From: Opitutia bacterium
Lineage (GTDB): Bacteria > Verrucomicrobiota > Verrucomicrobiia > Opitutales > T3Sed10-336
Length of the DNA stretch: 64,000 bases
Assembly: GCA_050506795.1 (NCBI GenBank)
Contig: JBJHCF010000002.1
Location: 128,001 to 192,000 of the forward strand
Reading direction: 5' to 3'
Shown in pieces: positions 33,228 to 36,472 of the stretch. Both the position numbers and the translations under genes were made by a program. How positions within the stretch are numbered: the stretch's first letter is position 1; the number at the start of each line of letters is the position of its first letter. The notes under the pieces are model-generated. The model saw only the letters and a program-made list of their open reading frames with translations, did not search any database and was not told the origin of the DNA.

Positions 33228-34697
33228 TTAAAACGGTCGCTGCACGCCGCCTTTGCGCTTGAAGCCAAGGCCGCTAAGATAAATGTCGCGGACGTCGATC
33301 CGTCCATCATTGCGCGTGTAGAGAAGGCCAAATTCCCCCAAGAACTGAACCAAGTCGTAGCTATTTCGGAAAGGCGGTCGATCAGGTTCGGGAAGCGCCG
33401 ACCAGTTGATTTCGAGTTGGTCTTGAAGTTCTCTTCGTTCCAAAGGCACCTTGAGGCCGAGCTGGAGAAGGTGCCTACGAACGGTGTCGATCCAGGGAAA
33501 CTCCTCTTTCAACTCCTCAATACGGTCTCCGGAAACCTTATCGAGAGCCCCACGCAAGCACGTGTGGTGAATCAACTGAGGCCACTTGGCCTTACCGGTC
33601 TGGTCCTCGATCTCTGCCGCCTTCTCAAAGAGACGAACGAATGATCGTGGAAGAACCTCACCGTGGGCGTCCTGAAGATGGGTGGGGATCCAGGTGAAAG
33701 TTCGCCCTTTAGTGGCACTGACTCCCATGAATTCTCCGCAAAGCCGCTCGATGGCCGGCTGGAAATCGCTCTCATCACGCACGGTCGGAACCCAACCAAC
33801 AGCCCCCTTTTCCTCGCCTACCGGCAACGTTTTTGCAAAATACTCACTGATCGCATCCCGCTCGCGATTCACCAAGCGCTTAAAGAATAGGGCGTAAAGA
33901 TCTTTCACGCTCCAGGAAAGGCTAAGTCGCTGAGCACTAAGCTTGGAAACGTCAGGACCAACCACGGCAGCCTTTTGGTAGAGATCGTGGCGAAGGAATA
34001 TCTTCGGACGGATGCGCTTCCACCGTCGGGAATTTGCGGACCAAAATTGAACGAGTCCTTGAATTATTTTAGCTAACGTGTCCCAGTCAGATGAACTGAC
34101 GCGGTCGAGTTCATCGTAGGTCACGAAAACATATTGGTTGTCGGCCAACAGTCTCTCATTTAGCTTATCGATCGCCTCGATAAATAGGGCAACATTAGCT
34201 TCGGTCAACTTGAACAGTGGCTCCGGCCCGGGTGACGATTGAAATAGGTCCAGCGGCAAATCAACAGGTAGGTCGACCTTACTGTCTTGAAGCGCACGAA
34301 GCAAATAGGCGAGCCAGACCATCTGCAAGTCATAGGAGGTTCTCGAGACAGCAAAGCGCTGGAACAACATTGGATGCGGGAAACTAGATCCTTCGGTAGT
34401 GTATCCCACACACCAACGTATTTTTTGTAGATCCTCAGCGCTGATGCGGGTTGCAACATTCGCGATGGATTCGGGACCGCCGGGAGTCTTCAATGCGCGG
34501 AAGAGCTCAGACTTGCCCGCTCCACGGTGACCAATAATCAACATGCAGTCCGGTTCCAGCACCCGCCCATGGATTGGCAACGGCAAAAAGCGACGGAGGA
34601 AAGTGGAACTATCACCTCCCTCGCCTTGGCCGGATTCGGCCATGTCTATAAAGATCTGCCGCAGATCGCGGGCCTTACTCTCGTTAACTTTTTCCAT
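33228..34697 (-). CDS. P-loop ATPase (STAND/KAP-like, uncharacterised)
   Basis: Walker A IGHRGAGKS, Walker B VFVTYDELD, KIFLRHDL; wHTH-like C-terminus. Confidence 0.8.
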   Translation of the reverse strand: MEKVNESKARDLRQIFIDMAESGQGEGGDSSTFLRRFLPLPIHGRVLEPDCMLIIGHRGAGKSELFRALKTPGGPESIANVATRISAEDLQKIRWCVGYTTEGSSFPHPMLFQRFAVSRTSYDLQMVWLAYLLRALQDSKVDLPVDLPLDLFQSSPGPEPLFKLTEANVALFIEAIDKLNERLLADNQYVFVTYDELDRVSSSDWDTLAKIIQGLVQFWSANSRRWKRIRPKIFLRHDLYQKAAVVGPDVSKLSAQRLSLSWSVKDLYALFFKRLVNRERDAISEYFAKTLPVGEEKGAVGWVPTVRDESDFQPAIERLCGEFMGVSATKGRTFTWIPTHLQDAHGEVLPRSFVRLFEKAAEIEDQTGKAKWPQLIHHTCLRGALDKVSGDRIEELKEEFPWIDTVRRHLLQLGLKVPLERRELQDQLEINWSALPEPDRPPFRNSYDLVQFLGEFGLLYTRNDGRIDVRDIYLSGLGFKRKGGVQRPF

Positions 34698-34705
34698 TGT
34701 ATCCC

Positions 34706-36007
34706 TTATTCGGTGAGAATTCGCTGAGCCAACTTAACGTAATCGTCCCCGCTTAATGCGTCTGCCGCATCTTCGACCGTGTCATAACCCATAATTTCTT
34801 CAGAATGCTTAAGGACGACGGGAAAATGCGGCTGGTCGGTCGCCTGCAAATCGGGCACTGGGTACTCGGGATCGTCAGTGTCTGGCGAATCGTAGTAGTC
34901 ATCACTGAACACTTCATGTGCCTTCTCCAAGAAACGTTGCACTGCCTTTTCGCGGATCTCTTGTTTTGGCGAGGCCATGCTTTGAACAAGAAAACACTCT
35001 TGTTGACGCTTCCTCTGCTCAATGCGGTTCCGTCCGAGATGGCGGATTGCCAATTGCAAGCCTCTCCAGCTTTGCTCAGAATCCAGCCCGAAAAGAACGT
35101 GACGATGGACGAGCGGACTGAGGGCAAGCCCACCCAGATCGTGAAGGCCGGCCCGTGAGTCGATTAACACGAGATCCGGCTTTATCTGCTTACGGGCTAT
35201 CTTCAAGAGATCTCCAAGGGGATCAGCCTGCCGCCCCGAGCCTTCATTTCCTTGCATGCGGTGATAATTGACGCGAGCAAGCTTTTCGAGGTAGTGTGCA
35301 TCCACAGATCCGGCCGGGATTACTTGAATCTCGCCCCCCATATTGCCCGTGGCCTTTGGCTTTTCATACCTGTAATGCAGGTCTTCAAAACTGAAATCGG
35401 AGCCGGCCAAAGGATATTCCAACAGAAAGTCAACTACACCAATGCCGGTTGCTGTTTGATCAGGCGACGGAAACATAGAAGCCAACCCCGGTGCTTCCAA
35501 ATCAAAGTCAATCACAAGCACTCGTTTACCCTTGCGCGCTTCCTGTACCGCAATTGAGGCAAGACTGGTTGAGCGTCCGACACCTCCCTTGTAACTGTAA
35601 AACGATATGATCAGGGGGGATTGAGAAACGAGGGGCCAAGGAGGGACACCGCCAACCGCAAACCAAGAGTCCTTCGAGATCCGACGGTGAAGCAAATAAA
35701 CTGAGGGAGAATCTGGTTCAACAACGGCGTTGTGCCACACGGCTTCAAATACCTTTCCGTCGGCTGCGGAAGATTTCGACCCATCGATCCAAAGTTCTCC
35801 TCCCCAATACTTGTCCGCAGCCGGCCCAAGGGTGGCGACGATTGTGTCTTTTACAACAGATTCCGTCTGCCCCGATACGGGCTTTGCCAGAACGCGGAAC
35901 CGGCCTTCCACATCGACCATAAGGCAGATTTTTTCGCAGCTAGTAGAAATAGGCTGGGACTTGAGTGCGTTTACGGATTCCTCAAATGCTTCAGTGAAAT
36001 GCTTCAT
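34706..36007 (-). CDS. ParA/MinD-like ATPase with a variant KGGVGR P-loop
   Basis: SFYSYKGGVGRST, VLVIDFDLEAPGL, VIPAG, VLIDSRAGL; ~125-aa N-terminal extension. Confidence 0.85.
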   Translation of the reverse strand: MKHFTEAFEESVNALKSQPISTSCEKICLMVDVEGRFRVLAKPVSGQTESVVKDTIVATLGPAADKYWGGELWIDGSKSSAADGKVFEAVWHNAVVEPDSPSVYLLHRRISKDSWFAVGGVPPWPLVSQSPLIISFYSYKGGVGRSTSLASIAVQEARKGKRVLVIDFDLEAPGLASMFPSPDQTATGIGVVDFLLEYPLAGSDFSFEDLHYRYEKPKATGNMGGEIQVIPAGSVDAHYLEKLARVNYHRMQGNEGSGRQADPLGDLLKIARKQIKPDLVLIDSRAGLHDLGGLALSPLVHRHVLFGLDSEQSWRGLQLAIRHLGRNRIEQRKRQQECFLVQSMASPKQEIREKAVQRFLEKAHEVFSDDYYDSPDTDDPEYPVPDLQATDQPHFPVVLKHSEEIMGYDTVEDAADALSGDDYVKLAQRILTE

Positions 36008-36025
36008 AATGTATGTTATTTATTT

Positions 36026-36472
36026 CTAAGTTGTTCTTCCGTCGAGGAAGGTCGGAATGATTACGCTTTGAAACATCTCAGTTGCGGCTCGTAAGCGAGA
36101 ATCCGCCTTGGCATGAAGGATATTGCCTTCCGGATAGTATCGCTCCTCCGGTTTCCATTCTGCAAGGAGATCTTGAAAATCCTGAGAATTCGGAATCTGA
36201 ATCCGTCGCCTCGCAGGGGAGAGAAGGGCGGCGAGTTGGAGTGCGTTTGTCGAGAGCGTGGTTAGATCATGTCCCAAAGACCGGGCGGAGACCGGGGAAT
36301 CTGATTGGAGGAGAGATTTCAACCCGCACTCGACGACGTATCCCGCGAGATAGCCCGCGTTGTCGTAGCGGCATTGCCCATGTAATCCGTAAGCATCATT
36401 GAAGTGCTTTTTGGATGCGGAGAGATAATCTTCTTGGCTCATTCCACTAGGTAAATTGGGAGGTTGGGTCAT
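36026..36472 (-). CDS. HEPN-like domain protein
   Basis: KHFNDAYGL...NAGYLAGYVVECGLKSLL...GHDL...WKPEERY follows the HEPN helical pattern. The start may be 36442. Confidence 0.75.
   Translation of the reverse strand: MTQPPNLPSGMSQEDYLSASKKHFNDAYGLHGQCRYDNAGYLAGYVVECGLKSLLQSDSPVSARSLGHDLTTLSTNALQLAALLSPARRRIQIPNSQDFQDLLAEWKPEERYYPEGNILHAKADSRLRAATEMFQSVIIPTFLDGRTT

Follow-up and report, generated by a model that had tools for sequence, protein, structure and literature searches.

The closest described relative of the locus analysed here is HINPO, set out in a computational preprint as a HEPN gene followed by an inactive Pol-beta-like nucleotidyltransferase (iNTase) fused to a ParA ATPase of the ConB2 clade, and then by an ORC-CDC6/STAND ATPase (Li, Burroughs and Aravind 2026; bioRxiv 10.64898/2026.10.19.760177). 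The marks given there for ConB2 ParA proteins are an Arg in place of the Walker A Lys and PG after DxD. PADLOC holds a three-component candidate, PDC-M28; PDCs are introduced as predicted and untested phage defence candidates (Payne et al., bioRxiv 10.1101/2024.01.29.577857). The same source reports embedded genes in 62.7% of Hma systems, and protection against phage by seven of the nine Hma-embedded candidates tested. Here we describe a trio of genes embedded in an Hma operon of an Opitutia bacterium (contig JBJHCF010000002.1, positions 128,001 to 192,000; this whole stretch of 64,000 nucleotides is the window, to which all coordinates refer), together with a predicted contact between two of its products that suggests how such a system may be controlled.

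The three genes, called A, B and C, are co-oriented on the minus strand, with gaps of 18 nt (A-B) and 8 nt (B-C). Gene A (36026..36472, 148 aa) encodes a HEPN protein, the PA-HEPN1 of HINPO; gene B (34706..36007, 433 aa) an iNTase-ParA protein; and gene C (33228..34697, 489 aa) a Sll1717-family P-loop ATPase that is probably STAND/ORC-CDC6-like. Adjacent and in order, they match the PADLOC hidden Markov models (HMMs) PDC-M28A (E 2.6e-17), PDC-M28B (E 9.6e-69) and PDC-M28C (E 9.6e-79), each over most of its profile length; the PDC-M28 identity is taken from these HMM matches to the three genes and not from PADLOC's own system rule. Gene B also passes NCBIfam NF047398 for KGGVGR-motif ATPases (175.9 bits, cut-off 90), and gene C passes NF047389 for the Sll1717 family (89.6 bits, cut-off 75). 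The trio is an intact HINPO/PDC-M28 cassette within an Hma operon. As a locus it adds little, being a further copy of a computationally described system that has been catalogued twice; its value is a specific, testable mechanism that follows from a predicted HEPN-iNTase interface.

The model of protein B (pLDDT 95) has an N-terminal domain followed by a ParA/MinD fold (residues 124-433), whose fold matches include FleN (8p53, Z 22.3) and MinD (1g3r, Z 22.0). Its Walker A motif reads KGGVGRS (residues 140-146, 35570-35590). R145 is present in all 122 homologues, D167, D169 and P173 are invariant, and G174 is found in 120/122; by these sequence marks the ParA belongs to the ConB2 clade. A preliminary description of the window had correctly pointed out the KGGVGRS motif, the additional N-terminal domain (about 112 residues, which folds separately) and the tight spacing and common orientation of the genes, borne out by the open reading frame (ORF) coordinates. 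It had read the motif as a local departure from the ParA norm, where the Arg is instead a clade mark, and had presented the trio as a system it did not recognise; the trio is PDC-M28 and HINPO, a kind of match that it had itself named as telling against its proposal and that does so in part. It had not recognised the trio as an experimentally named system, and full-text searches for PDC-M28, KGGVGR/Sll1717 and ParA-HEPN-STAND, with most subscription literature outside their scope, turned up no experimental study, and a cold-seep study tested other PDCs, M28 not among them.

The N-terminal domain of B (residues 1-112, 35672..36007, minus strand) is likely to be an MNT-like (minimal nucleotidyltransferase-like) dead nucleotidyltransferase, the iNTase of HINPO. 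Modelled in isolation (pLDDT 92), it has as its best fold match among 48,161 chains the minimal nucleotidyltransferase 1wot (Z 7.0, rmsd 2.7, 90 residues aligned), the next row being at Z 5.7; the top 28 rows also list three other MNTs (8xeh, 1no5 and 7ae2) alongside folds of unrelated kinds. No Pfam family matched the domain. The catalytic GSx10DxD motif is missing, even a loose GSx8-12DxD pattern occurring in only 1/75 of these domains, so this MNT fold would not be expected to AMPylate. What is conserved is D32 (75/75), W115 (invariant) and R108 (74/75); R38, R108 and K112 are conserved basic residues. Two homologues of about 910 aa (P0016 and P0019) consist of two tandem iNTase-ParA units.

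Gene A is of the HEPN-T type by its sequence and is likely to be an RNase effector. PF05168 is found in 58/70 family members at E<=0.1, and the Atlas clusters of the gene are named HEPN at 0.96; a profile search against the sequences of solved structures gave only 1wol (E 0.048). Seven residues are invariant in the family (H23, L30, E48, K52, H68, R111 and Y112). The C-terminal LDG (residues 143-145, 36038-36046; D144 in 63/70, G145 in 65/70) is retained in distant plasmid copies. The Rx4-6H motif is not conserved in the family, with a His 4-6 residues after R111 in only three of the 70, and H68 is the invariant alternative His. HEPN-T proteins are described as associated with nucleotidyltransferases, and some of them retain the Arg along with an alternative upstream His that could make up an active site (PMC3710099).

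A HEPN-T protein beside an MNT fold recalls the MNT-HEPN toxin-antitoxin pairs, and A was therefore folded together with the N-terminal domain of B, as two copies of A and two of B(1-126), alongside three controls. The predicted 2:2 complex scored 0.77 (runs 0.77, 0.76 and 0.78) and the best control 0.01; at least 62% of the contacts are common to the runs, and the partner pLDDT is 83. The complex thus passes a score mark that is reached by 116/157 solved and 2/215 mismatched pairs, counts that apply only roughly to a complex of this kind. In the prediction, residues 21-29 and 131-147 of A contact residues 30-36, 80-93, 106 and 108 of B, and the LDG tail of A is placed on D32 of B, near R108. 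The B side of the interface is conserved (p 0.045), and 139-86, the best of the covarying contacts, falls within the top 0.1%. H23, E48, K52, H68, R111 and Y112 of A are uncontacted. In a solved MNT-HEPN pair an MNT helix docks on the first and last HEPN helices (PMC11586414). The prediction suggests that the HEPN protein docks on the likely dead nucleotidyltransferase domain of the neighbouring ATPase. Such a contact appears to be new here: the main text of the HINPO preprint gives the iNTase the role of sensing nucleotides and does not mention a HEPN-iNTase complex, nor do the words ‘MNT’ and ‘PADLOC’ occur in it; its supplements and those of Payne et al. may bear on the novelty.

The arrangement of the trio is kept in its relatives far beyond chance. 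Searched against GTDB genomes, the gene B alignment gave at least 602 pattern matches, of which at least 596 were confirmed as relatives; the best 80 loci were kept. HEPN lies directly upstream in 74/80 (one a remnant), two of the six misses being at contig ends; the N-terminal domain of B is present in 80/80 and the ATPase C follows downstream in 79/80, so that the co-occurrence which the preliminary description wished to see checked is found. By record titles the 80 loci span many phyla and one archaeon, yet gene C was found in 0/40 relatives of this genome; the cassette therefore looks like a mobile accessory unit. Gene B matched 14 plasmid records, and all three genes are present on an Enterobacter asburiae conjugative plasmid (L087, 4378-7714) and at a Sphaerotilus BREX locus. 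No relative of gene B was confirmed in viral contigs, and phage genomes gave no match at E<=1e-10. The source genome holds a single HINPO-type ParA, four further matches spanning only the P-loop.

Defence neighbours were sought with PADLOC among 226 ORFs, the nearest two per side at 75 of the 80 loci, with long ORFs trimmed to 700 aa and thresholds of 1e-15 and 1e-25. A clear neighbour was found in 19/75 loci (Hma, BREX, Dnd/Pbe, Septu, retron XIII, HEC-02, restriction-modification and others), so that the association with defence genes put up for testing in the preliminary description holds for these and is not evident in the other 56. One further locus, L040, has an Hma neighbour in addition to the 19; five (L037, L039, L044, L055 and L066) were dropped from the count for weak or non-defence matches. 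In seven loci the cassette is embedded between two Hma or BREX genes (L001, L009, L032, L040, L014, L016 and L036). L001 repeats the order HmaA, trio, cargo, HmaB, HmaC at 66-76% DNA identity with different cargo, a 221-aa hydrophobic unannotated ORF standing in place of the PDC-S32 gene of our window. At L014 (6559-14566) a BREX pglX is split by the cassette into halves of 692 aa and 908 aa; the cassette shares 20 nt with the end of the first half and 4 nt with the start of the second. Just upstream of the cassette, L017 carries a pglX N-half, whereas L016 has only a C-half, downstream. This may be an insertion into pglX or else a PglX that is encoded by two genes and has a slot for cargo. 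A second, divergent cassette lies 2 kb from the first at L039 (15041-18200), with a different HEPN and a fused B-C protein of 896 aa, and at L032, L017 and L044 a weakly matching second ParA-like gene (ORFs of 330-337 aa) stands beside a DUF4062-like (RecG-C) gene.

Protein C, the second ATPase, has an intact Walker A motif (G56-K62) and Walker B motif (Y194-D198), which are kept in 110 homologues, as is R236. Its basic C-terminal tail (window 33228-33260), with R481, G483 and G484 invariant, usually reads GLKRKGG; most of the 110 homologues, and distant plasmid copies too, have it 6-7 residues before their end. The tail may serve as a peptide that activates ParA, or it may belong to a DNA-binding wing. 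The ORC-CDC6/STAND assignment is drawn from weak Pfam matches (ORC-CDC6-like PF24389 in 6/9 homologues, all under the cut-off, and in 13% of one Atlas cluster), from the names of the Atlas clusters of gene C (Sll1717, ORC-CDC6-like and nSTAND1) and from the HINPO preprint. A profile search against the sequences of solved structures returned only P-loop fragments and spurious repeats. Genes B and C are fused in P0065 and P0078, the former a protein of 1377 aa with a further 460-aa C-terminal region. At L054 (11175-16901) the gene C homologue is lengthened to 1908 aa by a second P-loop/helicase-like region.

Gene content and order, the folds, the intact NTPase motifs and the lost MNT catalytic motif are the observed base of the following model. 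We propose, with a probability of about 0.5, that the trio is an anti-phage (abortive-infection) system derived from a captured MNT-HEPN pair: the likely dead MNT domain would keep the HEPN dimer in check on the ParA protein, and C would act as the sensor. Two N-terminal domains of B would bind the HEPN dimer through helix 1 of HEPN and its C-terminal LDG tail. Since the predicted contact leaves the putative catalytic residues free, HEPN would be controlled through tethering or allosterically, without its active site being plugged. As STAND and ORC-CDC6 biology would have it, protein C may sense phage DNA or protein and drive the ParA switch; by analogy with ParA proteins, ATP-dependent dimerisation would then move the two tethered domains and change the HEPN dimer, so that the ATP cycle of B would free or reshape it. 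Following what other HEPN proteins do, the dimer might cut tRNA or rRNA through R111 and the alternative H68, and the infected cell would be arrested. The two-NTPase switch controlling HEPN that the preliminary description had in mind fits the predicted complex. More tentative, and in our view slightly likelier to fail than to hold, is the full extension of this to HINPO: that it is a domesticated MNT-HEPN pair whose antitoxin has lost its AMPylating site, uses this dead site to grip the LDG tail, and has been connected to a ParA switch and a STAND sensor, with two ATPases that free or activate an alternative-His HEPN-T RNase during phage infection.

Several points weigh against the proposed restraint of HEPN and its role in immunity. 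The N-terminal domain had no Foldseek match at E<=0.001 and its best Z of 7.0 is below 8, which leaves the support for an MNT-like fold moderate. Taken whole, the A side of the interface shows no more conservation than other parts of the protein (p 0.90). Inter-protein covariation, assessed at 24 predicted contacts, did not rise above background (p 0.22; 54/200 shuffled pairings reach it), and the partial distance correlation between A and the N-terminal domain, 0.10, was the lowest of six; both tests are underpowered, the covariation sample being 60 pairs (effective 41). The geometry resembles the solved MNT-HEPN pair, and the complex may owe its pass to that likeness. RNase activity through an alternative His is a proposal in PMC3710099, and AbiV, a bench-tested structural neighbour, uses the Rx4-6H motif. 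Four loci away from contig ends (L040, L042, L047 and L062) have B without a detectable HEPN. Of the scanned loci, 56/75 have, as a raw count, no clear PADLOC defence neighbour, and no phenotype is known for any copy of the cassette.

Some of these points bear on other explanations. Li, Burroughs and Aravind (10.64898/2026.10.19.760177) propose that C detects invading DNA and seeds ParA multimers, which coat the DNA and block it, with the iNTase as a nucleotide sensor and HEPN as only a backup killer. The persistence of B and C in the four loci lacking a detectable HEPN fits this, the B-C fusions P0065 and P0078 also suit it, and the basic residues R38, R108 and K112 of the N-terminal domain could, to judge from the sequence, bind nucleotides. 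HEPN is, however, kept in 74/80 loci with seven invariant residues, which is strong for a backup, and the most conserved residues of the N-terminal domain fall in the predicted HEPN interface. We consider this explanation unlikely; restraint of HEPN and nucleotide sensing can be combined where nucleotide and HEPN tail are in competition. HEPN might instead be inactive when free and become a nuclease only once the ParA and the STAND ATPase build a larger complex during infection. The predicted interface, which leaves H23, E48, K52, H68, R111 and Y112 free, is compatible with such activation by assembly, and tandem proteins such as P0016 and P0019 are expected if multimerisation matters, but in the solved cases considered the MNT partners of HEPN are antitoxins (PMC11586414), and we rate it as rather improbable.

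The absence of a clear defence neighbour from 56 scanned loci bears on the last alternative, a selfish addiction or anti-plasmid module that has merely landed in defence islands and has no anti-phage role. Its toxin-antitoxin ancestry and the position of the cassette next to a tyrosine integrase on a conjugative plasmid would suit such a module. Embedding in Hma and BREX operons has occurred repeatedly and independently, though, two conserved ATPases would be costly for simple addiction, and the protection given by 7/9 Hma-embedded candidates (Payne et al., 10.1101/2024.01.29.577857) also speaks against it; we think there is little chance that this explanation is right. An abortive-infection system in which B restrains HEPN remains our preferred reading.

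The operon around the trio, all on the minus strand, has HmaA (36986..40462; HTH-SNF2 helicase-NOV_C by Pfam, HmaA E 3.5e-133) on one side and HmaB (29250..32378; DUF1156 adenine methylase, E 4.2e-114) and HmaC (25433..28768; DUF499 ATPase, E 3.3e-62, PF04465) on the other, so that the PADLOC check suggested in the preliminary description identifies the flanks as well as the trio. The position it gave, between the SNF2 helicase and the DUF1156 methylase, is correct, but it missed two further occupants of this slot, which the trio shares. One is a gene for an AbiJ-NTD4 protein (32333..33208, 291 aa; PF18863 E 6e-32, PDC-S32 E 2.6e-101), 19 nt after gene C, whose stop is overlapped by the likely HmaB start (ATG 32336). 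The other is a short remnant of an NYN-like (HEC-09-like) gene (36469..36864; weak HEC-09 match, E 1.4e-6 over residues 58-107, about 50 matching residues) that shares 4 nt with the start of gene A. The PDC-S32 gene was considered as a fourth member of the cassette and rejected, as 0/80 related loci match it at E<=1e-5; profile comparison found no relationship to gene A. With its C-terminal GIRH motif, its product is a second candidate effector in the same slot and is regarded as separate cargo.

The trio is more AT-rich than its flanks, as had been noted: the GC contents of A, B and C are 51.7, 52.2 and 53.1% (third positions 53-59%), and that of the PDC-S32 gene is 50.8%, against 57.0-58.3% for the three hma genes (third positions 68-70%) and 58.9% for the whole window. 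Scans for promoters and terminators gave about what chance would give (5 vs 4.3 and 11 vs 10.9), no convincing repeats were found at the cassette ends, and a search of the window for tRNA genes gave none. A look through sequencing runs listed no RNA run with a match. More broadly, 14143-43098 is a defence island that includes a TOTE primase domain, a helicase, a RES domain, HsdM, a DUF4062 protein, a McrBC-like pair, a four-helix-bundle gene inside Hma, and PDC-S01.

Should the predicted HEPN-iNTase contact prove real, it would account for the domain that the HINPO preprint calls an enigmatic element and would show how the commonest HEPN-MNT toxin-antitoxin pair can become an ATPase-gated immune system; the locus would then also offer a first test of whether a HEPN-T protein without Rx4-6H cuts RNA through an alternative His.

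Compared with HINPO the trio shows no architectural difference, having the same HEPN, iNTase-ParA of the ConB2 clade and, putatively, ORC-CDC6/STAND-like ATPase. It likewise agrees with PDC-M28, whose three HMMs match in order and which was found as a candidate through embedding in defence operons, as here; it differs in that the available part of the source paper (10.1101/2024.01.29.577857) proposes no mechanism. Like other cargo of Hma systems it is flanked by HmaA, HmaB and HmaC in one operon; it is cargo and not core, however, since two or more hma genes adjoin in only 4/80 loci (L001, L009, L032 and L040). From ParABS and MinCDE it is set apart by the Arg at the Walker A Lys position of B, and no ParB or MinE family member was found among the 18 ORFs scanned at 18-51 kb of the window, to which the search was confined. 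The ParA-HeH-HEPN systems (ConB1), one member of which is reported to be an anti-phage system with a tRNA anticodon nuclease, similarly couple a ParA-family ATPase to a HEPN effector in defence, but their ParA is of another clade and has an HeH sensor as partner, without an iNTase or a STAND ATPase. The type VII HEPN-MNT pairs (HepT/MntA) share with the trio a HEPN-T-type HEPN next to an MNT fold; the 2:2 complex predicted here, with an MNT helix on the first and last HEPN helices, resembles one solved pair and may owe its score to that likeness. They differ in that the trio lacks GSx10DxD (1/75) and the RX4HXY motif in HEPN (3/70), and in that its MNT fold is part of a ParA protein with a second ATPase encoded after it.

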